A stretch of 11,406 nucleotides of DNA from Eggerthellaceae bacterium (GTDB lineage Bacteria; Actinomycetota; Coriobacteriia; Coriobacteriales; Eggerthellaceae): contig JAAWAY010000182.1 in assembly GCA_022792415.1 (NCBI GenBank), positions 1 to 11,406 on the forward strand, in the 5' to 3' direction. Position numbers and translations under genes: made by a program. Below are positions 1 to 11,406 of the stretch, piece after piece; position 1 is the first letter of the stretch, and every line of letters begins with the position of its first letter. The notes beneath the pieces were generated by a model. That model did no database searches. It saw only the letters and a program-made list of their open reading frames with translations, and was not told where the DNA came from.

Positions 1-102
1 GAGTGGTACCGGGACGGCAGGCTCAAGGCGTTCGAGGAGGACGGCAGGGTGGTGTACGATACGATCATGGGCCGCAGGAGGCGGCTCGGATACGCGGCCT
101 AG
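1..102 (+). CDS. 3' end of an unidentified upstream gene (truncated by window edge)
   Basis: Frame 1 is open from the window edge to TAG at 100-102. It reads EWYRDGRLKAFEEDGRVVYDTIMGRRRRLGYAA, with G/C-rich third codon positions like the neighbouring genes. It is too short to appear in the ORF track and no family can be assigned. Confidence 0.3.
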   Translation, partial: EWYRDGRLKAFEEDGRVVYDTIMGRRRRLGYAA

Positions 103-277
103 GCATGTCCAAGAATCTGCCGCAGTCCCGTTTGACGACGCCCGGGGACCCGATTCGGCCTCCTGGGGCAGAATCTCCGGAAAGTGGCTGAAGCTGACCA
201 GGTGTTTTGCCGATGAAGGCGCCCACGTGGCCCCGACCAGCGTCGTCAAACCCCCGATTCCTGGCATCTCGCGCCGC

Positions 278-405
278 GGGACGTGCGCGCCGGCCCCCGC
301 GGACCCCGCGGGACGTGCGCGCCGGCCCCCGCGGACCCCGCGGGACGTGCGCGCCGCCCCTCGCGGACGCCGCAGGACGTGCGCGCCGGCCTCCGCGGAC
401 GACGC
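278..405. repeat. Four tandem copies of a 32-bp GC-rich repeat (GGGACGTGCGCGCCGGCCCCCGCGGACCCCGC), each junction forming a CCCGCGG-ACC-CCGCGGG hairpin
   Basis: Copies lie at 278-309 and 310-341 (identical), 342-373 (3 mismatches) and 374-405 (4 mismatches). A partial copy precedes at about 268-277. The 32-nt period is not a multiple of 3, so the overlapping track ORFs (207..482, 227.., 283..714) shift frame at each unit. The array is therefore non-coding. Confidence 0.9.
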
Positions 406-539
406 CGCCCGGCGCCTCGCGGAGCCGCTCGCCGCGCTCGCGGGTTTTCTGGCGCCTGCGCCCCGGCCCCGCGCGACAATAGCCCTCGCACGAGGGCGCC
501 GTCCGCGAGGGGCGGGGCCGCAACCGAAACGGAGGAACC

Positions 540-1742
540 ATGCAAGACACCGCGACCAGCATCGACGAGCTCCTTTCCGACGGCATCAAGAGCACGCCCC
601 CGTCGTTCGTCCGCTCCATCCTGGCCGCCGCCTCCGATCCGGCCGTCACCTCGTTCGCCGGCGGGCTGCCCAACCCCATCTCGTTCCCGCAGGCCGAGCT
701 GCTGGACTCGATGACGCGCGTGGTGGCCGAGCGCGGCGCCGACGCGTTCCAGTACTCCATGACCGCCGGCATCCCCGAGCTGCGCGGGTGGATCGCCGAT
801 CGCTACAACCGCCGCTTCGGCACCGACTACGTCGCCGACGACGTGCTCATCACCACCGGCTCGCAGCAGATCCTCGACCTGCTGGGCAAGGTGCTGCTGG
901 ACAAGGGCGACGGCGTCATCGTGGAGAAGCCCACCTACCTGGCCGCCATCCAGGCCTTCGCGCTCAACCAGCCGACGTTCCGCGAGGTGGAGCTGACCGA
1001 GGACGGCCTGGACATCGACGAGCTCAACGCCGCGCTCGACGCCGGCGCCAAGATGATCTACCTCATCCCCAACTTCCAGAACCCCACCGGGCTCACCTAC
1101 ACCGCCGAGGGGCGCCGCCAGGTGCGCGAGGCGCTGGCCGGCCGCAACATCGTGGTGGTGGAGGACGACCCGTACGGCGAGCTGCGCTTCGAGGGCGAGT
1201 CGCTGCCCTACATCGGCGGGGTCAACCACCCGCACGGCGTCGTGATGGGGTCGTTCTCCAAGACGGTGACGCCGGGCTTCCGCATGGGCTACCTGCTGAC
1301 GAAGGACCACGCGCTGCTCAAGGCCGTCAACACCGCCAAGGAGGCCGCCGACCTGCACACCAACGTGTTCGCCCAGTACGCCGTCTACGACTACCTGACC
1401 CACCACGACCTGGACGAGCACCTGGTGAAGATCCGCGACCTGTACCGCGCCCAGGCCGCGGCCATGGTGGAGGCGATGGAGGAGTTCTTCCCCGAGGGCG
1501 TCGCGTTCACCAAGCCCGAGGGCGGCATGTTCCTGTGGGTGACGCTGCCCGAGGGCGTGTCCACCATGGCTCTGTTCGACAAGGCGCTCGCCCGCAACGT
1601 GGCCTTCGTGCCGGGCGACCCGTTCTACGCCGAGCCCGGCGAGCGCAACACCATGCGCCTGAACTTCACCAACGCCGACGAGGACACCATCCGCGACGGC
1701 ATCCGCCGCCTGGGCGAGGTGATCGCCGAGGAGTTGGCCTAG
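540..1742 (+). CDS. PLP-dependent aminotransferase, class I/II (2-aminoadipate / aromatic aminotransferase-like, MocR-type catalytic domain)
   Basis: 400-aa ORF with GGAGGA (531-536) just before ATG 540. The N-terminal FAGGLPNPISFP motif and the SFSK PLP-lysine motif (SFSKTVTPGFRMGY) are present, followed by a C-terminal MRLNF-type small domain. Codon bias is typical of a high-GC genome. Confidence 0.9.
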   Translation: MQDTATSIDELLSDGIKSTPPSFVRSILAAASDPAVTSFAGGLPNPISFPQAELLDSMTRVVAERGADAFQYSMTAGIPELRGWIADRYNRRFGTDYVADDVLITTGSQQILDLLGKVLLDKGDGVIVEKPTYLAAIQAFALNQPTFREVELTEDGLDIDELNAALDAGAKMIYLIPNFQNPTGLTYTAEGRRQVREALAGRNIVVVEDDPYGELRFEGESLPYIGGVNHPHGVVMGSFSKTVTPGFRMGYLLTKDHALLKAVNTAKEAADLHTNVFAQYAVYDYLTHHDLDEHLVKIRDLYRAQAAAMVEAMEEFFPEGVAFTKPEGGMFLWVTLPEGVSTMALFDKALARNVAFVPGDPFYAEPGERNTMRLNFTNADEDTIRDGIRRLGEVIAEELA

Positions 1743-1820
1743 GCGCCGGGCGGCGAGCCGCCTTCTGATCCTCGCGGTGCCGGGCATCCCTCCGCCAGAC
1801 GCCGACCCCATCGCGAACAA

Positions 1821-1864
1821 CGCGGGCCCGGCCGGGACATTCCGGCCGGGCCCGCGAGATTTTA
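1821..1864 (+). terminator. Rho-independent terminator of the aminotransferase gene
   Basis: A perfect 15-bp stem pairs CGCGGGCCCGGCCGG (1821-1835) with CCGGCCGGGCCCGCG (1842-1856). The loop is 6 nt (GACATT) and AGATTTTA follows the stem. Confidence 0.8.
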
Positions 1865-1903
1865 CGCTCCCTTCACACGCGCCTCACGCTCCCCTCCCAC
1901 CGC
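1862..1903 (+). promoter_or_regulatory. Pho-box-like direct repeats upstream of the Na/Pi transporter gene
   Basis: Hexamers TTTACG (1861), TTCACA (1872), CTCACG (1883) and CCCACC (1895) are phased at 11-12 nt. They resemble the TT(A/T/C)ACA units, repeated on an 11-bp phase, bound by PhoP/PhoB-type regulators. They sit 70-110 nt upstream of the transporter start, and a PhoB/OmpR-type regulator is encoded just downstream. Confidence 0.3.
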
Positions 1904-1971
1904 GCCCCTATCCTCTTCGACGACAAAGGGGCGGCCGGGCCGGGCGCCCGCGACGAGCCGAGGAGGCGCAC

Positions 1972-3006
1972 GTGGACGAGATGATGCGGACGGGGCTGGG
2001 ACTGCTGGGCGGCCTGGCGCTGTTCCTGTACGGCATGAACCTGATGAGCGGCAGCCTGCAGGAGGCCGCGGGCGAGCGGATGCGATCCGTGCTGGCGGCG
2101 GTGGGCCGCAACCCCGTGGTGGGCGTGGTCGCCGGCGCCCTGGCCACGGCGGTGCTGCAGAGCTCGAGCGCCACCACGGTGATGGTCATCGGGTTCGTGT
2201 CGGCCGGGCTCATGCGCCTGCCCCAGGCCGTCCCCCTCATCATGGGCGCCAACATCGGCACCACCATCACGGCGCAGATCCTGGCCTTCAAGCTGTCAGA
2301 CTACGTGCTGGCCATCGTGTTCGCCGGGTTCGTCGCCATGTCGCTGGCGCGGCGGGAGAAGGCCAAGCTGGGCGGGCGGGCGCTGTTCGGGTTCGGCCTG
2401 CTGTTCCTGGGCATCGGCACCATGGGCGACGCCCTGAAGCCGCTCGCGTCCGACCCGCTGTTCACCGACATGATCACCCAGGTGACGGGCGTGCCCGTGC
2501 TGGGCGTGGCCGTGGGCACGCTCATGACGCTCGTCGTGCAGAGCTCGAGCGCCACCATCGCGGTGCTTCAGAACCTGGCCTCGCAGCCCGGCCCCGACGG
2601 CGCGAGCCTCATCGGCCTGGAGGGTGCCATCCCCTTCCTGCTGGGCGACAACCTGGGCACCACCATCACGGCGCTGCTGGCGGCAGCGGGCCAGAGCCGC
2701 GATGCCAAGCGCGTGGCGCTGTCCCACTGCCTGTTCAACCTGTCGGGCTGTTTGCTGTTCGTGTGGATCATCGGGCCGTTCGCGGCGCTGGTGGCCGCCG
2801 TGCCCCCGGCCGGCCCCGAGCTGGAGGTCATCGCGCGGCAGATCGCCAACGCCCACACGCTGTTCAACGTGGCGATGACGGCGCTGTGGCTGCCCTGCGT
2901 GCCGCTCATGGTGCGGATGGTGATGGCGCTGCTGCCCGACCGGCCGCCGCGCCCGCGTGACCCGTTGGCCGCGCGCGACCCGCTGCCCGGGGGCATGGCG
3001 GCGTAG
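1972..3006 (+). CDS. Na+/phosphate cotransporter family protein (NptA/YjbB-like, transporter domain only)
   Basis: The polytopic membrane protein has a duplicated LQSSSATT / VQSSSATI signature, the QSSS repeats of Na/Pi-cotransporter type II. The track ORF begins at 1777, but that N-terminus is Pro/Arg-rich junk. GTG 1972 lies 5 nt after AGGAGG (1961-1966); ATG 1981 (MMRTGLGLLGG) is the alternative start. No PhoU-like C-terminal domain is present; the protein ends in a Pro-rich tail. Confidence 0.85.
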   Translation: MDEMMRTGLGLLGGLALFLYGMNLMSGSLQEAAGERMRSVLAAVGRNPVVGVVAGALATAVLQSSSATTVMVIGFVSAGLMRLPQAVPLIMGANIGTTITAQILAFKLSDYVLAIVFAGFVAMSLARREKAKLGGRALFGFGLLFLGIGTMGDALKPLASDPLFTDMITQVTGVPVLGVAVGTLMTLVVQSSSATIAVLQNLASQPGPDGASLIGLEGAIPFLLGDNLGTTITALLAAAGQSRDAKRVALSHCLFNLSGCLLFVWIIGPFAALVAAVPPAGPELEVIARQIANAHTLFNVAMTALWLPCVPLMVRMVMALLPDRPPRPRDPLAARDPLPGGMAA

Positions 3007-3024
3007 CACCTGGGAAACGGCCTG

Positions 3025-3063
3025 CGGGCGGGGGCATCCGCCCGTCCGGGGGCGGGCTACAAT
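3025..3063 (+). promoter_or_regulatory. Two mutually exclusive GC hairpins plus a TACAAT -10-like hexamer upstream of the response regulator
   Basis: CGGGCGG (3025-3031) pairs with CCGCCCG (3038-3044). The same CCGCCC (3038-3043) can instead pair with GGGCGG (3050-3055). TACAAT lies at 3058-3063, 30 nt before ATG 3093. No U-tract follows. Confidence 0.3.
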
Positions 3064-3092
3064 GAGCGCCGAGCACCGGCGGAAGGAGCATC

Positions 3093-3824
3093 ATGGCGGG
3101 CAGGCCCCTCATCTACTACGTGGAGGACGACGAGCACATCCGCGACCTGGCGGCATACGCGCTGGGTCAGGCGGGGATGGACGTGCGCGGGCTGCCTGAC
3201 GGGTCGGGGCTGGCGGCCCTGTGCCGGGCCGAGCCGCCCGACGCCGTGCTGCTCGACATCATGCTGCCCGGCGACGACGGGCTCACGCTGCTGCGCCGCC
3301 TGCGCGCGGACGAGGCGTGCGCCGACGTGCCCGTCATGATGCTCACGGCCAAGGGATCCGAGTACGATGCCGTGCGGGGGCTGGACGCCGGTGCCGACGA
3401 CTACCTGGCAAAGCCCTTCGGCATGATGGAGCTCATCGCGCGCGTGAACGCCCTGCTGCGCCGCGCCGCGCGCCCGGCCGCGACGGGATCACGCGGGGGC
3501 GGCGAGGAAGGCGAGGTGCTCGAGTCGGGCGGGGTGCGCCTGTCGGCCGCCTCCCACCGCGTGGTGGCCGGCGGGACGGCGGTCGACCTGACGGTGAAGG
3601 AGTTCGACCTGCTGCGCGCCCTCATGGCCCGGGAGGGGCGCGTGCTCACGCGCGCCCAGCTGCTCGAGGAGGTGTGGGGCGTGCTCTACCCCGGCGAGAC
3701 GCGCACGGTGGACGCCCACGTCAAGACGCTGCGCCAGAAGCTCGCCGCAGCCTGCCCCGGGGCCGAGCGGACCGTGGAGACGGTGCGCGGCGTGGGGTAC
3801 CGCTTCCAGGGCGGCGAAAGCTGA
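3093..3824 (+). CDS. OmpR/PhoB-family two-component response regulator
   Basis: The receiver domain has the acidic pocket YVEDDE, the phospho-acceptor context LLDIMLPGDDG, and LTAKG...KPF. The C-terminal winged-helix domain has LTVKEFDLL, VDAHVKTLRQKL and TVRGVGYRF. GGAAGGAG lies upstream of the ATG. Confidence 0.92.
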   Translation: MAGRPLIYYVEDDEHIRDLAAYALGQAGMDVRGLPDGSGLAALCRAEPPDAVLLDIMLPGDDGLTLLRRLRADEACADVPVMMLTAKGSEYDAVRGLDAGADDYLAKPFGMMELIARVNALLRRAARPAATGSRGGGEEGEVLESGGVRLSAASHRVVAGGTAVDLTVKEFDLLRALMAREGRVLTRAQLLEEVWGVLYPGETRTVDAHVKTLRQKLAAACPGAERTVETVRGVGYRFQGGES

Positions 3825-5311
3825 TGGGCCGCGCGCCCAGCCTCTCGCGGCGCCTGTTCCGCGCCGTGCTCGCGTTCGCCCTGGCGGGCATCGTGACGTT
3901 CTCGCTGGTCATCGCCGGCATCTGCTACGCGTCCCTCGAGCGAGACGCCGCCGCCCGCCTGGCCGGCGAGGCCCAGCGCGCCGCCCGGCTGCTCGACGGG
4001 CTGCCCGTCGGCGAGCAGGAGGCCATGCTGGCCGGTCAGCTGGACGATGCCGTGCGGATCACGCTGGTGGCGCCCGACGGCGCCGTGCTGTTCGACAGCG
4101 CCACGGCGTCGCAGGACCTGGGCGGGCTGCCCAGCCACGCCGACCGCCCCGAGGTGCGCGCCGCGCTCGAGAGCGGCGAGGGCGCGGCCGTGCGCCGCTC
4201 CGACACCCAAGGCGGCGACACCGTCTACGCCGCCGCGGCGCTGGCCGACGGGTCGGTGGTGCGCCTGGCCGAGACGCGCGAGTCGCTCGTCGCCTTCTTC
4301 CTGGACGGGCTGGTGGCGCCCCTGGCGGCGGCGCTCGTCATCGCCGCCGTGCTGGTGCTGGTGCTGTCGCGCCTGCTCACGCGCAGCCTCATGCGGCCCC
4401 TCGACCAGCTGGACGCGGCGCGGCCCCTGGAGGGCGAGGCCTACGCCGAGATGGTGCCGCTGCTCGCGCGCATCGACTCGCAGCAGCGCACGCTGCGCGC
4501 CCAGAACGAGGAGCTGGCGCGCGCCGAGAGCCTGCGCCGCGACTTCTCGGCCAACGTGTCCCACGAGATGAAGACGCCGCTGCAGGTGATAGCCGGCTAC
4601 GCCGAGCTCATGGCCAACGGCATGGTGCCGCCCGGCGACGTGGCGCGGTTCTCCGGGGTGATCTACGAGGAGTCCCAGGCCATGCGCGCGCTCATCGACG
4701 ACGTGCTCACGCTCTCGCGCCTGGACGAGCAGGGCGCCGGCACCGCGCAGGCCCCCGTCGACCTGGCCGGGGCCGCGGCGCGCGCGGCGCGCAGGCTGGC
4801 CAAGCCGGCGGCCGACGCGGGCGTCTCGGTGGAGGTGGACGCGGAGGGCCCGGCCATGGTGCGCGGCAGCGAGGCGCTGATCGAGCAGATGGCCTACAAC
4901 CTGGTTGACAACGCCGTGCGCTACAACCACCCGGGCGGCGAGGTGCGCGTGACGGTGCGGCTGGAGGACGCCGCGGGCGCGGAGGCGGGCGCGGGCGCGC
5001 GAGATGGCGCAGGCGCCGCGGGCGCGGGTGGTGAGGACGGCGAGGCGCGTGCCGCCAGCGGCCCGGTGGCCGTGCTCATGGTGGACGACACGGGGCCCGG
5101 CATCCCCCCGCAGGCGCGCGAGAAGGTGTTCGAGCGGTTCTTCCGCCTGGACAAGAGCCGCTCGAAGGAGACGGGCGGCACGGGGCTGGGGCTGGCCATC
5201 GTCAAGCACGTCGCCCTCACGCACGGCGGCAGCGTGTCGGCCGGCGACGCCCCCGGGGGCGGCACGCGCCTCACCGTGCGGCTGCCGGCGATCGCGCCGG
5301 GGGCGGAGTAG
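3824..5311 (+). CDS. Sensor histidine kinase (PhoR/EnvZ-like), translationally coupled to the regulator
   Basis: ATG 3824 overlaps the regulator stop (TGATG). Two TM segments (LAFALAGIVTFSLVIAGICYA and VAPLAAALVIAAVLVLVLS) flank a roughly 130-aa external domain. The H-box is FSANVSHEMKTPL, the N-box LVDNAVRYN, and the G-boxes DDTGPGI and GGTGLGLAIV. The track ORF starting at 3221 is an in-frame upstream extension overlapping the regulator gene. Confidence 0.9.
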   Translation: MGRAPSLSRRLFRAVLAFALAGIVTFSLVIAGICYASLERDAAARLAGEAQRAARLLDGLPVGEQEAMLAGQLDDAVRITLVAPDGAVLFDSATASQDLGGLPSHADRPEVRAALESGEGAAVRRSDTQGGDTVYAAAALADGSVVRLAETRESLVAFFLDGLVAPLAAALVIAAVLVLVLSRLLTRSLMRPLDQLDAARPLEGEAYAEMVPLLARIDSQQRTLRAQNEELARAESLRRDFSANVSHEMKTPLQVIAGYAELMANGMVPPGDVARFSGVIYEESQAMRALIDDVLTLSRLDEQGAGTAQAPVDLAGAAARAARRLAKPAADAGVSVEVDAEGPAMVRGSEALIEQMAYNLVDNAVRYNHPGGEVRVTVRLEDAAGAEAGAGARDGAGAAGAGGEDGEARAASGPVAVLMVDDTGPGIPPQAREKVFERFFRLDKSRSKETGGTGLGLAIVKHVALTHGGSVSAGDAPGGGTRLTVRLPAIAPGAE

Positions 5312-5391
5312 CGGAACGGGCGCAGCGGGGCGGGGCGGGGCGCGGGACGGGGCGTGGGACGAGCCCACCGCGCGGCGCGGGGCAGGCCTCG

Positions 5392-5925
5392 CTAGAGCGC
5401 CAGCGCGCAGGCCGCCGCGATCGCGCCCGCCGCCAAGCCCAGCGCCGCGCCCGCGACGACGTCACGCGGGTAGTGGACGCCGCCCGCCACGCGCAGCGCC
5501 GCCAGGACGACGGCGGCCGCGCCCAAGCCGACCGAGACGGCGGGGGACGCGCACCACCAGCCCGCGGCGATGGCGAAGGCCGAGAACGCGTGGCGGCTCG
5601 GCAGCGAGCGGCCCGCCCCGTCGCGGGCGATGAGCGGGGACACGCCGTCACGCTCGTAGGGGCGCGGCGCGTCGATGCGGGCGCGCACGAGGCTCACCAG
5701 GGCGAACGCGACGCCGAGGATGCCGACCAGCGGCACGAGGCGCACCGGGTCGCGCGCCGCCTCCAGGGCGAGCAGCACCGCGAAGGCCGCATAGAACACC
5801 CAGACGATGGCGCGGTTGGCCGCCCCGAGCGCCCGGGCGAGCGTCGGGCGGGCGCCGCACCACGCGGCCCAGCGGGCGTAGCGTCGCGCGTAGGGACGCG
5901 CCTCGGGTGCGCCTGCGTCGCACAT
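5392..5925 (-). CDS. PAP2-family membrane phosphatase (phosphatidic acid / undecaprenyl-diphosphate phosphatase type)
   Basis: All three PAP2 motifs are present: RARIDAPRP (KX6RP-like), PSRH (PSGH-like) and RVAGGVHYPRD (SRX5HX3D-like). The protein has several hydrophobic helices. The start is taken as ATG 5925 (MCDAGAPE), which overlaps the stop of the upstream sirtuin gene by 1 nt (ATGA). The track ORF extension to 6204 is Arg/Gly junk overlapping that gene. Confidence 0.8.
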   Translation of the reverse strand: MCDAGAPEARPYARRYARWAAWCGARPTLARALGAANRAIVWVFYAAFAVLLALEAARDPVRLVPLVGILGVAFALVSLVRARIDAPRPYERDGVSPLIARDGAGRSLPSRHAFSAFAIAAGWWCASPAVSVGLGAAAVVLAALRVAGGVHYPRDVVAGAALGLAAGAIAAACALAL

Positions 5926-6842
5926 CAGGCCCCCTCCCCCGTCACCGCGTCCAGCACCTGGCCCACCGGGGCGGCCACGCACAGGTCGGCGCGGCGGTCG
6001 GCGTCGGTGGGGCTCAGGTTGACGATGGCCAGGTGGTCGCCCTGGAAGTAGCGCAGGAGCCCGGCCGCCGGGTACACCACCAGCGACGTGCCCGCCACCA
6101 CCAGCAGGCGCGCCTGGGCGACGGCCATCGCGGCCGCCTCCAGCACGGCCCCGTCGAGCGGCTCCTCGTAGAGCACGACGTCGGGCTTGACGACGCCCCC
6201 GCACGAGCAGCGCGGCACGCCGTCGGGCGACGCCGCGCGCAGGGCCAGCATCTCGTCCAGGTCGTAGGCCCGCCCGCAGCCCACGCAGCGGTTGCGGTGC
6301 ACGCTGCCGTGCAGCTCCATCACGTTCCGGCTGCCCGCCGCCTGGTGCAGCCCGTCGATGTTCTGCGTGACCACCGCCGCGCAGGTGCCCTGCCGCTCCA
6401 GCTCAGCCAGGGCCCGATGGGCCGCGTTGGGCCGTGCGGCGGGGTGCACCATGTGGTCGAAGTAGAAGTCGAAGAACGCGCGCGGGTGCGCGTCGAAGAA
6501 CGAGCGCGACACCATCTCCTCGGGCGAGCGCTCGCGTCCCTGGGAGAACACACCGCCCGCGCTGCGAAAGTCGGGGATGCCGCTCTCGGTGGACACGCCC
6601 GCCCCGCCGAAGAACACCAGGCCGCCCGGCGGGCACTCCCCCACCCAGCGGCGCAGCGTCGCGACGCCGCGCTCCGCCTCCTCGCCGCGCGATCCGGCCG
6701 CATCCGCTGGCGACACCGTGGGCGGCGCGGCGCCCGTGTCCGCAGGCGTCGGCCCAGCCGCCTCCAAGGCCTCCCGGCCCGTCGCGTTCGCGTTTGCCGA
6801 CGTCGACGTCGCCGCGAGCGCGCCCCGGTCTCGATCGCCCAT
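5925..6842 (-). CDS. cobB: NAD-dependent protein deacylase, Sir2/CobB family
   Basis: Motifs present are GGAGVSTESGIPDFRS, TQNIDGLH, ELHGS and the zinc ribbon CVGC...CSCGG followed by KPDVVLYEE. The start is taken as ATG 6842 (MGDRDRG), preceded by GAGGTGG. The track ORF continues to 7139 only because the purine-rich tract lacks stops. About 55 aa of low-complexity N-terminus precede the catalytic core. Confidence 0.88.
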   Translation of the reverse strand: MGDRDRGALAATSTSANANATGREALEAAGPTPADTGAAPPTVSPADAAGSRGEEAERGVATLRRWVGECPPGGLVFFGGAGVSTESGIPDFRSAGGVFSQGRERSPEEMVSRSFFDAHPRAFFDFYFDHMVHPAARPNAAHRALAELERQGTCAAVVTQNIDGLHQAAGSRNVMELHGSVHRNRCVGCGRAYDLDEMLALRAASPDGVPRCSCGGVVKPDVVLYEEPLDGAVLEAAAMAVAQARLLVVAGTSLVVYPAAGLLRYFQGDHLAIVNLSPTDADRRADLCVAAPVGQVLDAVTGEGA

Positions 6843-7060
6843 GTCCCACCACCTCGCATCCGCACCGAATCCTTCGAGGTACAGGATAGCCCACCGGCGC
6901 GGCCGCCACCATACAACCCGCGGGACGCGACCTTCAGCCGTTCCCGGCATGAAGCCCACCAGACGGCCCTCCGCCCTTCGACGGCCCTCTACCACATAGC
7001 GCCAGGCGGCCCGCCTCCTTCCAGCATGAGCCCCCTCGGCCGCGCAGGCCATCAGACGCG

Positions 7061-7185
7061 ACCTTCCGACCTCCCAACCTCCCCCCCTTCCTCTTCCCCC
7101 CTTCCTACCTTCCCCCCTTCCGACCCTCCTTCCGACCATCTCCCATCCCCCTTTCCTTCCCGCCTTTCCACCTCCCTGCCTCCCG
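7061..7185 (+). repeat. About 125-nt polypyrimidine (C/T) low-complexity tract with internal short repeats
   Basis: Only about 15 purines occur in about 125 nt on the + strand. CCTTCCGACC occurs three times (7062, 7117, 7128). TTCCCCCCTTCC-type units recur every 13-15 nt. The tract lies 220-340 nt upstream of the sirtuin start, where it is purine-rich on the sense strand. Confidence 0.85.
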
Positions 7186-7237
7186 GCAACCTGCCAGTGA
7201 CCCGCCAGCCGCCTTCAGCGACTTTTCACCCCGCCTC

Positions 7238-7400
7238 CATCCAGAATCGACGGTTTGTCGCCATGCGGCCAGCATCCTAAGACGCACAGGAAGCCCAGCG
7301 CCACACAAAACGGATCGATGTCTTTCGCTGACCTGGGGTTTCATCAAGAGGCCGTGCTACAACAAAGCAGGGCGAGCGAACAAACCGTCAATTCTGGATG
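7238..7400. repeat. 20-bp inverted-repeat pair (1 mismatch) flanking a 123-bp lower-GC segment
   Basis: CATCCAGAATCGACGGTTTG lies at 7238-7257. Its reverse complement, CAAACCGTCaATTCTGGATG, lies at 7381-7400, matching 19 of 20 positions. Confidence 0.85.
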
Positions 7401-7434
7401 AAATGCGAGCAAGAACGGGATGCACGCCGTCAGG

Positions 7435-7581
7435 CACACGCGCGATGCCGGGAAGGCTAGACGCACGCGGCGCCGAAAAGATCAGTCACGTGCGATTCAG
7501 GGAAGACCGGCCACACGCGCGATATCGAAAGAATCGACCACCCGCGCGGAGTCGGGAATGCGGTCGCGCGAGACCAGGAAG
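7435..7581. repeat. Iteron-like array: six phased copies of a 16-nt motif GCGCGAnnnCGGGAAG
   Basis: Copies start at 7440, 7465, 7490, 7517, 7544 and 7566, spaced 25, 25, 27, 27 and 22 nt. The sequences are GCGCGATGCCGGGAAG, ACGCGGCGCCGAAAAG, GTGCGATTCAGGGAAG, GCGCGATATCGAAAGA, GCGCGGAGTCGGGAAT and GCGCGAGACCAGGAAG, matching the first copy at 10-13 of 16 positions. An exact 12-mer, CACACGCGCGAT, occurs at both 7435 and 7512. The period is variable and not a multiple of 3, so the array is non-coding. Confidence 0.65.
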
Positions 7582-7785
7582 TCCGAACGACGCGCCAGGA
7601 CGGCCGCCTCGAGATGCTGACCTCTGAGGCAGGGTCGTACGTCGGCCCGCCTCGCGCGGGACGCCGGATCTTCGCGCCACCGCGGGTCGGGACGTGGGAC
7701 GCGAGGAGGGGCGAACGGTAAATCGCGCCATTGCATCCAGCTATATGAAGTTCAATAGAAAAGGGCCCAACACGGGGCGAGCGGC

Positions 7786-8985
7786 CTACTCACGGGGGTG
7801 AGCGGCGACAGGCTCCCGAGGCTCGTAGGGGCGCTGCTCGCGCCAAACGGCGAGGATGGTACCGGCCAGCTTACGGGCGACCGCCGAGACGGCCACCCAG
7901 TGGTGCTTGCCGCGATCACGCAGAGCCTGGTAGTAGTCCCCGTAGTAGGGGTCAGCCCTCCTTGCGGCGTCGGCCGCGATCATGAGCGCCCGGCGCAGGT
8001 AGGGGCTGCCGCGCTTGGACATGTGGGCGCGCCTCCCCTCGAACTGCCCGGACTGGAAGCGCGAGGCGTCCATGCCAGCGTAGGCGATTACCTTGGAGGC
8101 GTCCCCGAAGGAGGAGGCGTCGCCCAACTCCGAGGCGATGGCGGCGGCGGTCACGACGCCCAGGCCCGGGACGGTGAGGAGCACGGCGGCGGAGGAAGCG
8201 GCAAGCTGCTCGGCGCAGAGCACGTCGAGTTCCGCTATGGCGCGGTCGAAGCCGTCCAGGAGGCCGAGCAGGACGCGGGCCTCGCAGGACAGGGCCTCGG
8301 AGGGGCAGCCGACCGAGGCGCGGGCGGCCCCGACGAGGGCGCAGGCCCGCTCGTGCCCGTGTCGGCCCCGGGAGGCGGTAGAGAGCAGCGCCGCCAGGGC
8401 CTCCGGGTCGGCGTCGGCCAAAAGGCACGGCGAGGGGTAGGCCGCCAGCACCGCGCGGGAGGAGGCCGACCAGAGGCCGCCCATGACGCGGGCGAACTCC
8501 GGGAAGACACGGTCAATGACGGCGGTGAGGCGGTTCTTGGCCTGGGTTCGCTGCGCCACCACCTGCGAGCGGCAGCGGGTGAGGTGGCGCAGACCCTCCG
8601 CGTCAGGCGGGAGGGCGGGGACGGGCTCCGGTCGGTAGAAGCGCCCAAACTGCGCGATGGCCACGGCGTCCACCGCGTCGGTCTTGCACTTGCGCACCGT
8701 CTCGGCGCGACGGAAGGCCGAGACGCGGGCAGGGTTCACGACAGCCACGCGCCACCCCGAGGCGGCGAGGTGTCGGGCGAGGGCCACGTGGTAGTGGCCG
8801 GTGGCCTCCAGCACGACGAGCGAGCCGGACGGCGCGGCCCCGCGGGATTGGAGCCAGGACGCGAGGGACGCGAACCCGGCGGCGTCGTTGGAGAAGGAGA
8901 AGGGAGGCCCGACGACCCCTCCCCCCTCGTCGACGGCGGCGGCAACGTGGAAGGCCTTGGCGACGTCGATGCCGACATAGAGCAT
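7786..8985 (-). CDS. IS110-family transposase / DEDD recombinase
   Basis: 399 aa. The N-terminal RuvC-like DEDD pattern is MLYVGIDVAK (D), VLEATGHYH (E) and CKTDAVDAVAIA (D, D). The C-terminal Tnp_20-type domain has TVPGLGVVTAAAIASELGD (HhH) and SGQFEGRRAHMSKRGSPYLRRAL (conserved Ser region). GGAGGGAGG lies 7 nt upstream of the ATG. Confidence 0.93.
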   Translation of the reverse strand: MLYVGIDVAKAFHVAAAVDEGGGVVGPPFSFSNDAAGFASLASWLQSRGAAPSGSLVVLEATGHYHVALARHLAASGWRVAVVNPARVSAFRRAETVRKCKTDAVDAVAIAQFGRFYRPEPVPALPPDAEGLRHLTRCRSQVVAQRTQAKNRLTAVIDRVFPEFARVMGGLWSASSRAVLAAYPSPCLLADADPEALAALLSTASRGRHGHERACALVGAARASVGCPSEALSCEARVLLGLLDGFDRAIAELDVLCAEQLAASSAAVLLTVPGLGVVTAAAIASELGDASSFGDASKVIAYAGMDASRFQSGQFEGRRAHMSKRGSPYLRRALMIAADAARRADPYYGDYYQALRDRGKHHWVAVSAVARKLAGTILAVWREQRPYEPREPVAAHPRE

Positions 8986-8995
8986 GGAGAAACCT

Positions 8996-9096
8996 CCCTC
9001 CTGCCTCCCCGCGCGCCCCGCCCCACAAGATCTTCGGTCATGCGGCCCCTGGGGCGCACCAGCCGAATACGCGGCACAGGCGGGGAGGCGGGAGGG
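8996..9096 (-). promoter_or_regulatory. Long stem-loop filling the rep-recombinase intergenic region; its 3' arm covers the recombinase Shine-Dalgarno
   Basis: A 17-nt inverted repeat with one mismatch pairs 8996-9012 (CCCTCCTGCCTCCCCGC) with 9080-9096 (GCGGGGAGGCGGGAGGG). The enclosed loop is 67 nt and contains a smaller GC hairpin around 9042-9057. On the minus-strand RNA the 3' arm GCGGGGAGGCAGGAGGG runs into the GGAGGGAGG ribosome-binding site. Confidence 0.6.
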
Positions 9097-9112
9097 CTGA
9101 CTATGTAGATGA

Positions 9113-9730
9113 CTAGACGAGGCCGGCGGCTGCCAGCTGCTCGGCCTCCCTGACCTGACGTGTGCGGGCGGCGCAGCGCCTGGAGCGTATGTACTGCGAT
9201 ATGCCGTAGGCCGACTTGCTGGACAGTATCAGCAGCCAGTCGGAGTTGTTGCGGGCCGCGTAGTTCCAGAGCGCGGCGAACTCGTTGACGTCGTTGTCCT
9301 CCACGAACGCCGTCATGTCCGCGAGCATGGACAGCTCCTCGGACTTGGAGAGCGCCCGGGAGAAATCGCACGTGATGCCGGAGAGGCGCACGACCGAGTC
9401 GACCGGGTAGGGGTGCTTGGAGGGGTCGTCGAGGTGGCAGAGGTAGCGGCACATGGTGCGGAAGCTGCGCACCGGCTCGAAGAACTCCACGCCCGTGAAC
9501 GCGAAGTCCTCGCGCACCTGGGAGAGGGCCTTCACGCTCTCGTAGCGGGCCACTACGTGGACGTGGGGCTTCACGGGCTGCCCGTCGGCGTCCACGTCGG
9601 CGTCGTGCAGGACGTAGGCGATCGGAACGTGCAGGTCGCGCATCATGCCCTCCCAGCCCTCGGGGAGGGACTCGGGGTAGCACACGAACGTCCAGCAGGG
9701 CTTGCGCTTGGAGGGGTCGTACTTCGCCAT
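9113..9730 (-). CDS. Rolling-circle replication initiator, RepB/Rep_2 (pMV158) family HUH endonuclease
   Basis: The N-terminus closely parallels pMV158 RepB: CWTFVCYPESLPEGW (compare YFTFLLYPESIPSDW), LHVPIAYVLHDAD, the HUH motif KPHVHVV, and the tyrosine motif MCRYLCHLD (compare MYLYLTH). AAGGAG lies 7 nt before the ATG. Confidence 0.88.
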   Translation of the reverse strand: MAKYDPSKRKPCWTFVCYPESLPEGWEGMMRDLHVPIAYVLHDADVDADGQPVKPHVHVVARYESVKALSQVREDFAFTGVEFFEPVRSFRTMCRYLCHLDDPSKHPYPVDSVVRLSGITCDFSRALSKSEELSMLADMTAFVEDNDVNEFAALWNYAARNNSDWLLILSSKSAYGISQYIRSRRCAARTRQVREAEQLAAAGLV

Positions 9731-9766
9731 GGGGTGCTCCTTACGTGATTAGTGAATACTGATGCA

Positions 9767-9797
9767 ATTGGGGGGCAGACGTAGCAGGCCCCCCAAT
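9767..9797 (-). promoter_or_regulatory. Candidate double-strand origin (nick-site hairpin) for the Rep protein
   Basis: A perfect 10-bp stem pairs ATTGGGGGGC with GCCCCCCAAT. On the gene-sense (minus) strand the 11-nt loop reads CTGCTACGTCT. It shares the CTACG core with the pMV158-family nick sequence TACTACG/AC, which also sits in a hairpin loop upstream of repB. The hairpin ends 36 nt upstream of the rep ATG. A second small hairpin, GCCCC-TGCCG-GGGGC, lies at 9799-9813. Confidence 0.5.
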
Positions 9798-9843
9798 CGC
9801 CCCTGCCGGGGGCAACGGCCCGGCTCCGCGCGGAAAGACGGTG

Positions 9844-10533
9844 CTATTCCGCGCTGCGCTGCGCCGGGAGCGGACGGTCGCCGCCCGGGGGCAGGGGTGC
9901 CCCCTGCCCCCGCCCCCGGGCGTCGCCCGGCACCTGCCGGAAGAGCGCACAACTGTCGTAGAGGCGACGGTAGCAGCGGCGCGGAAAGAGCCAGGAGACG
10001 CCGATGCGCTGGCCGAGGCCGTAATAGCAGCTAACCGCACAGAAGAGCCTCCCGGCAAAGGGGAGCGAGAGCAAGCGAGCGACGAGGCCGAAGCTGGCGA
10101 GGCGGCGGTGCTTCACCTCGACCTCGATGAGCGCCCGTATCTGGCGGTCTATCATGCGGTCGTGCTGGGCTATGAGCACGACGCGGTAGCCAAGCTTGCG
10201 GTGCTGGGAGAAGAACTCGATCCACGAGAGCCGGTCGCGCTGCGACCAGTCGCGGCTGTTGAACACCAGCTGCGCCTCGTCGATGACGAGCAGGATATCA
10301 TCCTCGCGCACCCTGCGCCCGCCCCAGCGGGCCCGGGCAATCTCATAGAGCCGGGGCGGCGAGAGCGCGTCGTTGGGGACGTACCTGAAGCGCTCGGCGT
10401 AGCCGCGCGTCTCCGGGTTGACGTCGAAGTTGGCGACGACGGGGGCGCGGCGCCACACGAGCGCGTCGCGTATCTCCTTGGCCGCGTGCATGGACTTGCC
10501 CGAGCCGGGCGTGCCGGAGTAGAGGTAGATCAC
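9844..10533 (-). CDS. Zot / inovirus pI-like assembly P-loop ATPase
   Basis: Walker A lies at the extreme N-terminus (MIYLYSGTPGSGKS) and Walker B is DDILLVIDEAQ, followed by FSQHRKLGYRVVLIAQ. This is the characteristic Zot-family layout. A hydrophobic segment (LVARLLSLPFAGRLFCAVSCYYGL) follows the ATPase domain. The start is GTG 10533, 6 nt after GGGAGGAGG. Confidence 0.85.
   Translation of the reverse strand: MIYLYSGTPGSGKSMHAAKEIRDALVWRRAPVVANFDVNPETRGYAERFRYVPNDALSPPRLYEIARARWGGRRVREDDILLVIDEAQLVFNSRDWSQRDRLSWIEFFSQHRKLGYRVVLIAQHDRMIDRQIRALIEVEVKHRRLASFGLVARLLSLPFAGRLFCAVSCYYGLGQRIGVSWLFPRRCYRRLYDSCALFRQVPGDARGRGQGAPLPPGGDRPLPAQRSAE
9887..9911. other. Perfect 11-bp GC hairpin inside the 3' end of the Zot-like gene
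   Basis: GGGGGCAGGGG (9887-9897) pairs with CCCCTGCCCCC (9901-9911) around a 3-nt loop. It lies in the low-complexity tail codons (RGRGQGAPLPPGG) of the ATPase ORF, about 45 nt before its stop. Confidence 0.6.
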
Positions 10534-10546
10534 AAGCGCCTCCTCC

Positions 10547-10801
10547 CTACTTGACAGAGTTTATGAAGTCCATGACCACAAGGGCGACGTTGACCGCGAT
10601 GATCGCGCCGACCCAGACGGTCAGGATGGTTATGAGGTCGCCCACCGGGATAAGCCAGTTGAGCGCGCCCAGGGCGTCGGCCACGGGCTGCGGGACGGCG
10701 AGGGGGAGCGATGCCACGTCGATGGTGGGCAGGAGGCCCAGGAGCAGCAGCACCAGCTGCAGCCCAGCGCCCGTGAGGAAGTCGATGATCTGCGTTATCA
10801 C
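10547..10801 (-). CDS. Small hydrophobic membrane protein, inovirus pVI-like position (minor coat / assembly)
   Basis: The 84-aa product starts at GTG 10801, which overlaps the upstream stop (GTGA). It reads VITQIIDFLTGAGLQLVLLLLGLLP...LITILTVWVGAIIAVNVALVVMDFINSVK, with 2-3 predicted TM helices. Its stop overlaps the ribosome-binding site of the Zot-like gene. The track ORF start at 10999 gives an Arg-rich N-terminus overlapping the upstream gene and is judged spurious. Function is assigned from position only. Confidence 0.5.
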   Translation of the reverse strand: MITQIIDFLTGAGLQLVLLLLGLLPTIDVASLPLAVPQPVADALGALNWLIPVGDLITILTVWVGAIIAVNVALVVMDFINSVK

Positions 10802-11406
10802 GTCGCACCACCCGCCCCGGTGCGGAAGATGAAGGACTTGGACGAGAGCAGGAGGCCGCACGCGAACAGCAGCCGCACCGCCCAGCCGACGACGTCCGCG
10901 AACCCCTGGTAGCCGGAGAGGTCGAGGACAAGCGACTCGCCCATCACCTCGAAGGAGACGACCGGCGCGGCGGCGTCGGCCTCGAGGAGCCCGAGGCACT
11001 GCTTGACGATGGCGGGGACGCAGAAGGGGAACACGCCCGAGAGCGCGCCGAAAACATCGGAGGTGAGGGCAGAGAGCCGCGAGAAGTCCAGGTCGCCCAG
11101 GATGGCGTCGGCCACGTCCTCGGCCAGGCCGAGGCGCAGGAGGGACTGTATCTCGCCCAACTCGTCGTAGAGGCGGTCGGGTATGGAGACATCGACGGAG
11201 GGGAGGTCGAGGGCTCCCATACGGTTATAGACCATCGCCAGAAGTTGGGCAACTGAATGCACCTCACGGGAGGAACCAGGCAGTGTTCCGCTGTAGTAGC
11301 CCGCAGACCACAAGCCTGCAAGAAGCTGCGATACCGTGTGGGAGGTGCGGGAACTGCTGGGCAGGGCGCCCTCGAAGGTGAAGCGCCCGTCGGTGACGAG
11401 CATGGC
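10798..11406 (-). CDS. Hypothetical phage structural protein with C-terminal membrane anchor (pIII-like position); possibly 5'-truncated by window edge
   Basis: The reading frame is open to the window end, with an ATG at 11403. A C-terminal hydrophobic segment (VVGWAVRLLFACGLLLSS) is followed by a short tail. The gene lies immediately upstream of, and overlaps, the pVI-like ORF. No recognisable catalytic motif is present. Confidence 0.45.
   Translation of the reverse strand, partial: AMLVTDGRFTFEGALPSSSRTSHTVSQLLAGLWSAGYYSGTLPGSSREVHSVAQLLAMVYNRMGALDLPSVDVSIPDRLYDELGEIQSLLRLGLAEDVADAILGDLDFSRLSALTSDVFGALSGVFPFCVPAIVKQCLGLLEADAAAPVVSFEVMGESLVLDLSGYQGFADVVGWAVRLLFACGLLLSSKSFIFRTGAGGAT

Follow-up and report, generated by a model that had tools for sequence, protein, structure and literature searches.

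The stretch of DNA analysed here, hereafter the window, is 11,406 nucleotides (nt) long and corresponds to one whole contig of an Eggerthellaceae metagenome-assembled genome, the source assembly having no sequence past 11406. From 11406 to 7737, its minus strand is likely to be the right-hand portion (~3.7 kb) of an integrated inovirus (filamentous phage) that carries its own IS110-family DEDD recombinase as integrase. The left part of the prophage is missing, because the contig breaks inside the pIII-like gene. The phage module adds a new member to a known group of gut inoviruses, which has already been sequenced but not characterised. We further propose, tentatively and at slightly less than an even chance, that a lineage of Eggerthellaceae inoviruses is the cargo of an IS110-type element with a naturally split bridge RNA, and integrates in a reprogrammable, RNA-guided manner into sites resembling repetitive extragenic palindromes (REP-like) or into other short sites. 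Loci fetched for comparison are designated by L numbers. The features of the element are as follows.

10798..11406, minus strand: C-terminal 203 codons of a pIII-like large virion/adsorption protein; open reading frame (ORF) open at the contig end
10547..10801, minus strand: pVI-like 84-residue protein (p6) with multiple transmembrane segments; its GTG start overlaps the upstream TGA stop (GTGA, 10801-10798)
9844..10533, minus strand: pI/Zot morphogenesis ATPase, 229 residues (Pfam, PHROG, Walker motifs)
9887..9911, minus strand: perfect 10-bp GC hairpin GGGGGCAGGG-ggcac-CCCTGCCCCC, inside the 3' end of the Zot ORF
9731-9843, minus strand: Zot-rep intergenic region, 113 bp, non-coding
9767..9797, minus strand: putative double-strand origin nick hairpin of 10 bp, stem ATTGGGGGGC/GCCCCCCAAT, loop cTGCTACGTCt
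9744..9764, minus strand: three 7-bp direct repeats, CATCAGT ATTCACT AATCACG, directly 3' of the hairpin; candidate Rep-binding iterons
9113..9730, minus strand: RepB/Rep_OBD-type HUH rolling-circle initiator (Rep), 205 residues (Pfam)
8995..9096, minus strand: donor-binding-loop (DBL)-like stem-loop (fold and by-eye homology to IS110-group bridge RNAs), made of CGTATTCGG (9071-9063), guide CTGG (9062-9059), an inner hairpin and the 3' loop CATGACCGAAGATCTTG
7786..8985, minus strand: IS110-family DEDD recombinase, 399 residues, proposed phage integrase (Pfam, PDB)
7737..7785, minus strand: right end (RE) of the element, with a terminator-like hairpin (7782-7765), a -35-like box TTGAAC (7755-7750) and the terminal motif TTCATATAGCTGG (7749-7737)

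A first-pass annotation of the sequence had described a same-strand block made of a pIII-like gene, an 84-residue protein joined to it by a GTGA overlap, Zot, an intergenic region and Rep, and had read it as the gene order of inoviruses. All of these parts are present, on the minus strand, and are homologous and syntenic in complete circular Inoviridae and in Eggerthellaceae prophages. The two profile searches set beforehand gave E=3.9e-22 for Zot (Pfam PF05707) and E=2.1e-24 for Rep (PF01719, Rep_2 or Rep_OBD). Zot also matched PHROG 197 ‘Zot-like’ (1.6e-25) and PHROG 1675 ‘protein I of M13’ (2e-20), and its N-terminal P-loop GTPGSGKS (Walker A) and its LLVIDEAQ (Walker B) are both conserved. 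Neither the 84-residue protein nor the pIII-like fragment matched a Pfam or PHROG profile. The former is called pVI-like on the basis of its position and hydrophobicity; the latter ends in a hydrophobic C-terminal membrane anchor, WAVRLLFACGLLLSS.

Complete relatives were found among deposited phage genomes, with 84 records for Zot and at least 50 for Rep (tblastn). Nearly all Rep matches and the best Zot matches are circular Inoviridae of 4-10 kb from rodent, lemur or pig faeces, known from virome assemblies only; the remaining Zot matches are classical filamentous phages of Gram-negative bacteria. The four window genes are homologous and syntenic with those of complete circular inoviruses of 5.4-6.2 kb, at 45-70% protein identity. 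Complete syntenic Inoviridae include bajarodino viruses 40, 9 and 26 from animal gut viromes (GenBank PQ006143, PQ006132 and PQ006168, all circular, 5.4-6.2 kb), the Dulem viruses of lemur faeces (PMC11281440) and a porcine Inovirus sp. Like the window, bajarodino and Dulem genomes encode a large pIII-like protein, a protein of ~85 residues, a short Zot of ~205 residues, an intergenic origin and a Rep_OBD-type Rep; their order continues past Rep with small ORFs and the major coat gene. In bajarodino viruses 40, 9 and 26, Zot is followed by ~85-160 bp of intergenic DNA, Rep, 5-10 small ORFs, a protein of 500-700 residues and one of ~85 residues, and one small ORF of virus 40 is annotated as major capsid protein. 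Virus 40 also shares the origin loop, GCTACGTCT. These genomes have no recombinase, whereas in the window rep is followed by the IS110-family recombinase and its flanking non-coding modules. The bajarodino Zot proteins are 58-66% identical to that of the window and have C-termini reading ...RQVPGAA. Their pVI-like proteins are 62-70% identical (the 70% being for the 84-residue ORF before Zot in virus 9), and the pIII-like fragment is 46% identical to the C-terminus of a 707-residue protein of virus 9 and 51% identical to that of virus 26 (tblastn).

When one genome per species was scanned, the Zot proteins nearest to that of the window (59-65% identity) came from Adlercreutzia mucosicola DSM 19490, A. 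caecimuris B7, Enterorhabdus and other Eggerthellaceae, and more distant ones from Lachnospiraceae and Oscillospiraceae. The Eggerthellaceae loci have the pIII-like gene, p6 and Zot in the same order, followed in most by a Rep_OBD-type Rep. In these prophages the pVI-like protein is 52-74% identical and constant in position, and the pIII-like fragment is 39-50% identical to the protein upstream of p6/Zot in Adlercreutzia and Enterorhabdus (tblastn). Altogether the order pIII-pVI-pI-intergenic origin-Rep on one strand was seen in the window, in complete circular GenBank genomes and in more than 20 genomic loci. Within the library searched, no paper linked inoviruses to Eggerthellaceae. To our knowledge, Propionibacterium phage B5 is the only cultured inovirus of an actinobacterium. 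This filamentous phage likewise infects a high-GC Gram-positive bacterium and has a small genome that lacks a secretin, and it was not among the Zot or Rep matches in the phage collection. The present prophage has no secretin gene either, as expected for a monoderm host.

The single-stranded DNA (ssDNA)-binding and coat genes had been presumed to lie beyond 11406 in the first-pass annotation. The contig ends at that position; in complete relatives, however, such ORFs do lie upstream of the pIII-like gene, namely a first ORF of 76-87 residues, the size of an ssDNA-binding protein, and a 52-residue pVIII-like coat ORF (METITTA...KRF), for example METITTALGTAITSLSSNIQTAVGANLPAMLSVAAIFIVITATWRLVKRFAK. 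The missing left part of the prophage would thus hold an ssDNA-binding-like ORF, small membrane ORFs and a major coat gene of ~52 residues. The pIII-like fragment contains internal repeats of ~24 residues (11200-11400, minus strand; SSSRTSHTVSQLLAGLW / GSSREVHSVAQLLAMVY), and its homologue in L009 has many of them; such repeats may plausibly have caused the assembly break. A related prophage, L127, bears an IS21-type element (rve and IstB) at 224-2591, inserted in its pIII-like gene. The 6.9-kb L127 had been a candidate circular genome, and this was rejected in favour of a prophage with an IS21 insertion.

The gene that follows rep is labelled ‘IS110 family transposase’ at NCBI, where Rep is recorded as ‘HFJ75_09195 hypothetical protein’. 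Its product matched DEDD_Tnp_IS110 (PF01548, E=8.7e-38) and Transposase_20 (PF02371, 2.2e-22), as well as the structures of ISCro4 (PDB 9t56, 1e-27) and IS621 (8wt6, 7e-24), and residues D7, E60, D103, D106 and S312-G313 are invariant in the recombinase alignment. The module had at first been bounded at 9113-11406. The genes listed within these bounds were confirmed, but the adjoining IS110 gene and its flanks belong to the same element, which extends down to 7737, flanking non-coding DNA included.

Comparison of related loci bears this out. L131 aligns without a break to window 11138..7737, at 74% nt identity, the similarity stopping exactly at 7737 (protein identities of 78% for Rep, 78% for the recombinase and 79% for p6). 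L047 aligns to 10272-7775 at 76% nt identity and shares the terminal RE motif further on; Rep and recombinase are 80 and 73% identical in L047, and 57 and 50% in L041. In L041-44, L047, L119-129 and L131 the order is always pIII-like gene, p6, Zot, Rep, ~127-146 nt, recombinase. The recombinase is followed, at every locus recovered, by ~45-55 nt ending in (C/T)ATATAG(C/A)TGG and then by unrelated host DNA (terminal motif and change of sequence were read in L047, L041, L119, L123, L124, L125 and L127). The window prophage/host junction is at 7737|7736, where the RE terminus reads ...CATATAGCTGG; canonical IS110 relatives end in TTGAC..TATAGCTGG|TCT. Moreover, deletion of the L041 sequence from TATATTGAG... 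(5186) to ...CCATATAGATGGT (...GATGGT, ~12030) rejoins two host ORF fragments into an ORF of 254-255 residues, which continues a gene with a weak PDDEXK_2 match. Since joint removal restores this ORF, phage and recombinase entered the chromosome together, as a single unit. A search around L041 turned up no flanking repeat, and the recombinase is linked to the phage, which does not fit integration of the XerCD/dif type (CTXphi-like). We conclude that the IS110-family gene belongs to the phage, and that it probably inserts the phage into the chromosome.

Recombinase-less relatives were also found (L045, L046 and L009), adjoining dut-nrdR-lexA, and L045 is flanked by a 20-bp direct repeat, TAAGAT(A/G)CATTATCAGACAT, at 890-909 and 6019-6038. 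The lineage therefore uses at least two integration strategies.

IS110 elements comprise an RE, a left end and a bridge RNA with two loops (Durrant 2024, PMC11208160). As canonical comparators we used IMG/VR relatives with recombinases 33-46% identical to that of the window, none of which contains a Zot. These have an RE of the form TTGAC..TATAG-NNNG|TCT, a left end with a -10 box and a ~190-nt RNA with two stem-loops. In the 5' side of their second loop (GAATGAG-NNNG-ATG), the guide equals the RE bases in 14 of the 15 loci with an RE-like match, in the variants CTGG, TTGG, TTAG and CAGG; the lone disagreement appears to reflect a spurious RE match. Their first loop carries, on its 3' side, the complement of CT and of 2-6 bases from the right flank.

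The stem-loop at 8995..9096 resembles the second of these loops, the donor-binding one, homology being judged by eye. It is conserved in L047, L041, L119, L124 and L131, and its guide equals the RE terminal bases: CTGG in the window (RE ...ATAGCTGG), L047 and L119, and ATGG in L041. The donor core is flanked by ATATA...TATAT (junction ATATA-GCTGG-CT-TATAT), much as short ATA/TAT subterminal repeats flank IS110 donors (Durrant 2024, PMC11208160). No target-binding loop lies next to the window DBL; candidate target loops lie far away, at the left end, and were seen in just L041 and L124, the two loci with complete left ends. These two share the left end CT|TATATTRAGTCSCG (in L124, CT|TATATTAAGTCCCG), which begins with TATATT and would, once circularised, lie 15 nt from the -35-like box of the RE. 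Just downstream of the -10 box, both left ends fold into a stem-loop that has a large internal loop, and this loop is complementary, on its 3' side, to the core and right target: TTTGGAG against CT-CCAAA (CTCCAAA) in L041, and TTCCGTAG against CTACGGAA (CT-ACGGAA) in L124. Five right junctions in the L124 lineage read CT(A/G)CGG(A/G)(A/G), and canonical relatives obey the same anchored complementarity rule.

The junction dinucleotide is CT in L041, L047 and L119-L127, and at both ends of L041 and L124. For the window, the empty site is expected to read ...|NT|GCAATGGCGCG. The L124 phage sits in a REP-like palindrome, with the target form GACCAAGGTCGCCCC-CT-ACGG, and an unoccupied copy, GGGGCGACCAAGGTCGCCCC-CT-ACGG (…GCCCC CT ACGG), lies 5 kb from the prophage. 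Several REP-like palindromes (GGGGGCGACCTTGGTCGCCCCC and variants) surround this prophage (L124 2900-3050 and 15176-15203), one of them being the integration target. In related strains, L124 and L125 are no more than ~5 kb apart; the idea that they were unrelated sites was rejected on this ground.

The model suggested by these comparative data is the following. The phage would integrate by means of the IS110-family DEDD recombinase that the last prophage gene encodes, without a tyrosine integrase or XerCD. A donor-binding-loop RNA, its guide identical to the RE terminal bases, would be encoded between rep and the recombinase gene. The target-binding stem-loop, in complete relatives, lies at the opposite (left) end, and circularisation would set its -10 box facing the -35-like box of the RE. 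The target-binding RNA would then be made from this junction promoter at the left end of the phage, and the donor-binding RNA ~5 kb away, upstream of the recombinase. The ~5-kb phage genome would thus be cargo between the two loops of an IS110 bridge RNA, the whole unit inserting at short chromosomal targets, which in one lineage are REP-like palindromes. Bridge RNA is known to work when supplied in trans (Durrant 2024, PMC11208160). A possible further case of separated loops is L116, an IMG/VR locus with a related recombinase: its upstream RNA (7818-7905) matches the target-binding half of the covariance model described below, but has only 6 nt in place of 58 positions of the donor-binding half.

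Several observations weigh against this interpretation of the window. The window DBL-like element was detected neither by an nhmmer profile nor by a covariance model, R1, built with four manually checked helices supplied (RNAalifold on a MAFFT alignment of the canonical upstream RNAs gave a poor consensus, with register shifts). R1 and the profile both recovered the GC-rich canonical L048 (E 2e-7 and 6e-6); among phage loci, L124 3075-3179 alone was matched, at E=4, although at the position and in the register predicted. The short left-end complementarity did not reach significance in unanchored shuffling (160/2000 and 506/2000), and exact-pattern scans of IMG/VR and JGI metagenomes for the circle junction RE-CT-left end found none. 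Instead of CT, the window has AT as its junction dinucleotide, and L131 has TT. The Zot stop codon is lost in the window copy. Hundreds of Eggerthellaceae IS110 proteins ~50% identical to the recombinase look like ordinary stand-alone insertion sequences (ISs). A Rep (P0004, 72% identical) and a recombinase (P0045, 52%) share a longest contig of 2,558 nt, a possible linkage that suggests occasional module shuffling. Finally, left end, coat gene and target-binding loop are not in the contig.

Some of these points also feed other explanations. One is that the IS110-family gene is an independent IS that landed next to the prophage, or in its attachment site, and plays no role in integration. The ~50%-identical proteins, which sit on ~1.6-kb contigs typical of multicopy ISs, speak for it, as do the recombinase-less relatives beside dut, one of them (L045) with its 20-bp direct repeat, and selfish and domesticated transposases are inseparable by sequence (Roux 2019, PMC6813254). 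Yet the RE is the prophage/host boundary at every site examined, with no phage DNA beyond, nt identity is uniform (74-76%) over phage genes and recombinase, and the L041 host ORF is restored only if phage and recombinase are removed together. In addition, the rep-recombinase spacer is 127 nt in the window, against ~190-215 nt for the left end of canonical relatives; a stand-alone IS is unlikely because 127 nt is too short for a canonical left end of ~190 nt. We regard this explanation as quite improbable. Only a little less improbable, in our opinion, is a nested arrangement, in which a recombinase-less inovirus integrated into a resident IS110 element, in its left end between the RNA loops, and formed an accidental composite. 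In L041 the 9-bp repeat CGTATTCGG does occur twice, at 5320 in the left end and at 10667 ahead of the recombinase, and removal of the DNA between these repeats would give an IS of ~1.5 kb and a phage of ~5.3 kb, both of typical size. The DBL stem-loop is nevertheless complete alone, with both outer-stem strands within the rep-recombinase spacer, and the architecture recurs in lineages with only ~50%-identical recombinases, at different chromosomal sites; it follows that the composite itself propagates.

A decayed and immobile prophage remnant, or an assembly-truncated fragment, without current function, is unlikely but carries more weight. The pIII-like gene is truncated at the contig end, the Zot ORF, its stop codon lost, reads through the downstream hairpin, and the junction dinucleotide is AT. 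Taking this AT as proof of decay was rejected once L131 showed TT. On the other hand, the ORFs of the module that are present are all intact, with overlapping or tightly spaced starts and good ribosome-binding sites (RBSs), the catalytic motifs of Zot, Rep and recombinase are conserved, an identical contig of 1,630 nt is present in run SRR11195283, and the break of the contig is plausibly due to the repeats inside the pIII-like gene. The last alternative, a fragment of an integrated rolling-circle plasmid or conjugative element rather than a phage, has hardly any likelihood. It draws on the 31-37% identity of Rep to the Reps of small rolling-circle-replicating (RCR) plasmids, including those of Eggerthella lenta, but Zot/pI and the two genes upstream are syntenic with complete Inoviridae encoding annotated coat proteins, and the window has no relaxase, type IV secretion system or mobilisation gene. 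We thus favour an inovirus carrying its own IS110-family recombinase.

Replication of this phage was expected, from the first-pass annotation, to depend on an initiator of the pMV158 RepB/Rep_2 family. Besides Rep_OBD, Rep matched RepB_C (PF21861, 9.2e-12) over residues 134-185, which correspond to the C-terminal oligomerisation domain, and the pMV158 RepB structure (PDB 3dkx, E=2.9e-6). In an alignment with the RepB chain 8amu, HDAD faces HDKD, HVHV faces HYHV and MCRYLCH faces MYLYLTH, with metal ligands and catalytic tyrosine in register; these residues are invariant in alignments of Rep relatives. The family assignment is therefore upheld. The same annotation had presented the combination of phage genes and plasmid initiator as a noteworthy chimera. 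Such a combination is not unusual: 50 or more inovirus genomes on deposit share the Zot-intergenic-Rep_OBD layout. Inoviruses and plasmids are known to swap replication modules (Roux 2019, PMC6813254). The Rep is 52-80% identical to phage Reps (52% for bajarodino virus 40) as against 31-37% for the nearest plasmid Reps, including those of 3.8-kb Eggerthella lenta plasmids, so that a ‘phage-plasmid chimera’ is what this lineage normally shows. Rep peptide patterns scanned against IMG/VR retrieved no relative.

The intergenic region had been called hairpin-rich. It holds one 10-bp hairpin (9797-9767), kept in the centroid fold, but as a whole is no better folded than shuffled sequence (z=-0.75), and the second, GC hairpin lies inside the Zot ORF. 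The loop GCTACGTC (tGCTACGTCt) is conserved in 8 distinct loci with differing stems (ATTGGGGGG, CCGATGCCAT, GATGCCATGGGG, AAATGGGGGG), with a variant, GTTACATCT, in L041. In pMV158, RepB nicks TACTACG/AC in the loop of the inverted-repeat hairpin IR-I, beside which stand two 7-bp proximal direct repeats (PMC1851628). By analogy, we infer in the window a RepB-type double-strand origin with a predicted nick at CTACG/TC (9780|9779), contained in CTGCTACGTCT. Relatives have two or three 7-bp repeats at a position equivalent to that of the window iterons (TTATCAG TTATCAA; CAGTATT CAGTATT). From homology, the RepB-like HUH protein would bind the 7-bp iterons and nick the plus strand in the hairpin loop, priming rolling-circle replication as pMV158 RepB does; the pI/Zot, pVI-like and pIII-like proteins would then extrude the filament.

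The two systems thus have in common a Rep domain with HxD, HxH and catalytic tyrosine, a C-terminal RepB_C, and a nick sequence in a hairpin loop (TACTACG/AC against tGCTACG/TC) with short direct repeats adjoining. They differ in that similarity to RepB is low (E~3e-6), the replicon is that of a phage, there are no distal 11-bp repeats, and the copy-control elements copG and RNAII were not seen in the window. Another type of origin was observed in L004, L005, L006, L008, L009, L019 and L024, with a hairpin ACGCCCCCTA-CTTGATA-TAGGGGGCGT followed by GTGTTCC GTGTTCC. It goes with a Rep_OBD protein of only ~30% identity, in Adlercreutzia prophages; as a distant Rep comes with a different origin loop, origin and Rep were exchanged together. 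We take the CTTGATA loop to resemble the CTTG/ATA nick site of pC194/phiX174-type replicons.

Upstream of this region, the Zot stop of relatives (after ...RQVPGAA / ...APGG) is lost in the window, and 24 more codons (9844-9915, minus strand) are read through the GC hairpin. Comparable hairpins stand directly past the Zot stop in L002, L004, L008, L009, L041 and L131, the stop codon preceding the hairpin in L131. The window hairpin (9911-9887) may serve in termination, in packaging or as minus-strand origin.

Inoviruses with an IS110-family transposase have been described before. Those of Neisseria, Nf1-4 and MDA, are thought to use it for integration at a short repeated chromosomal sequence, dRS3, with a CT motif (PMC7058167, citing Kawai 2005), and Inovirus D_HF3_12 (OR148970), a circular genome from a salivary virome, also contains an IS110 transposase. 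The Neisseria Nf/MDA phages resemble the window in this respect, but their recombinase is only ~29% identical to that of the window, over the N-terminal half, their host is Gram-negative, their Rep is gpII/RstA-like, and the transposase has another position relative to rep. Among the papers searched, none described a bridge RNA for these phages or linked bridge RNAs to filamentous phages. With IS621 and ISCro4, the window shares the DEDD and Tnp domains (E 1e-24 to 1e-27) and an RE with a -35-like box, and the window group has in common with them an ATA/TAT-flanked donor, a 5' loop guide equal to the RE terminal bases and, in one phage lineage, REP-like targets. Canonical IS110 elements, however, are ~1.3-1.6 kb long with both RNA loops adjacent in the left end, whereas in the window group ~5 kb of phage genes appear to separate the target loop (left end, seen in relatives only) from the donor loop.

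The integration module is thus a probable new variant, with phage cargo and a split guide RNA, which ties a whole virus genome to a bridge-recombinase system. If true, it would be a natural example of two bridge-RNA loops acting from separate loci, it may explain the site choice of IS110-carrying filamentous phages, including Neisseria Nf/MDA, and it would provide recombinase/guide pairs that are compact and GC-rich and whose natural donors and targets are defined. The inovirus with its RepB-type initiator, for its part, adds one member to the sequenced, uncharacterised gut group and assigns this group to Eggerthellaceae hosts. In canonical upstream RNAs (e.g. L050), we also noted two possible pairing partners for the 5' end, ACAGATTGAGG: one is the closing strand of the first stem-loop, the other is CCTCCATCTGT, just upstream of the recombinase RBS; this alternative pairing may couple RNA folding to recombinase translation.

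The remainder of the contig is host DNA.

1-7139: host genes (aminotransferase, membrane protein, two-component system, PAP2, SIR2)

Only PAP2 and SIR2 were profile-tested among these, the aminotransferase being named by eye and the two-component system from ORF translations. GC content of the window is 63-81%, and the prophage sits in an Eggerthellaceae chromosome of 70-78% GC. Scans for tRNAs and Rfam families gave empty or chance-level results; the window therefore lacks both a tRNA attachment site and any curated RNA family. Among the proteins looked up by exact sequence, Rep alone was on record, and Zot, the recombinase and the response regulator gave no match. Between the prophage end and SIR2 lie ~600 bp (7140-7736, with a lower GC content of 63%) without a convincing ORF, tRNA or Rfam match, and similar to none of the fetched loci. 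This stretch (7736-7140) was considered as a 3' bridge RNA, IS1111-like, and rejected, since the similarity of relatives ends at 7737 and the stretch matches no fetched locus. The first 13 nt past the junction resemble the L047 flank (TGCAATGGCGCGA vs TGGTACGGCGCCA). CT-rich tandem repeats of 8/16 nt (GA-rich on the minus strand) occupy 7061-7137, within the 5' part of the long SIR2 ORF. The SIR2 domain begins only at residue 179, and the true start codon is therefore probably further downstream. Lastly, a 32-nt tandem repeat in four copies (92% matches) is found at 274-400, upstream of the aminotransferase ORF (540-1742).

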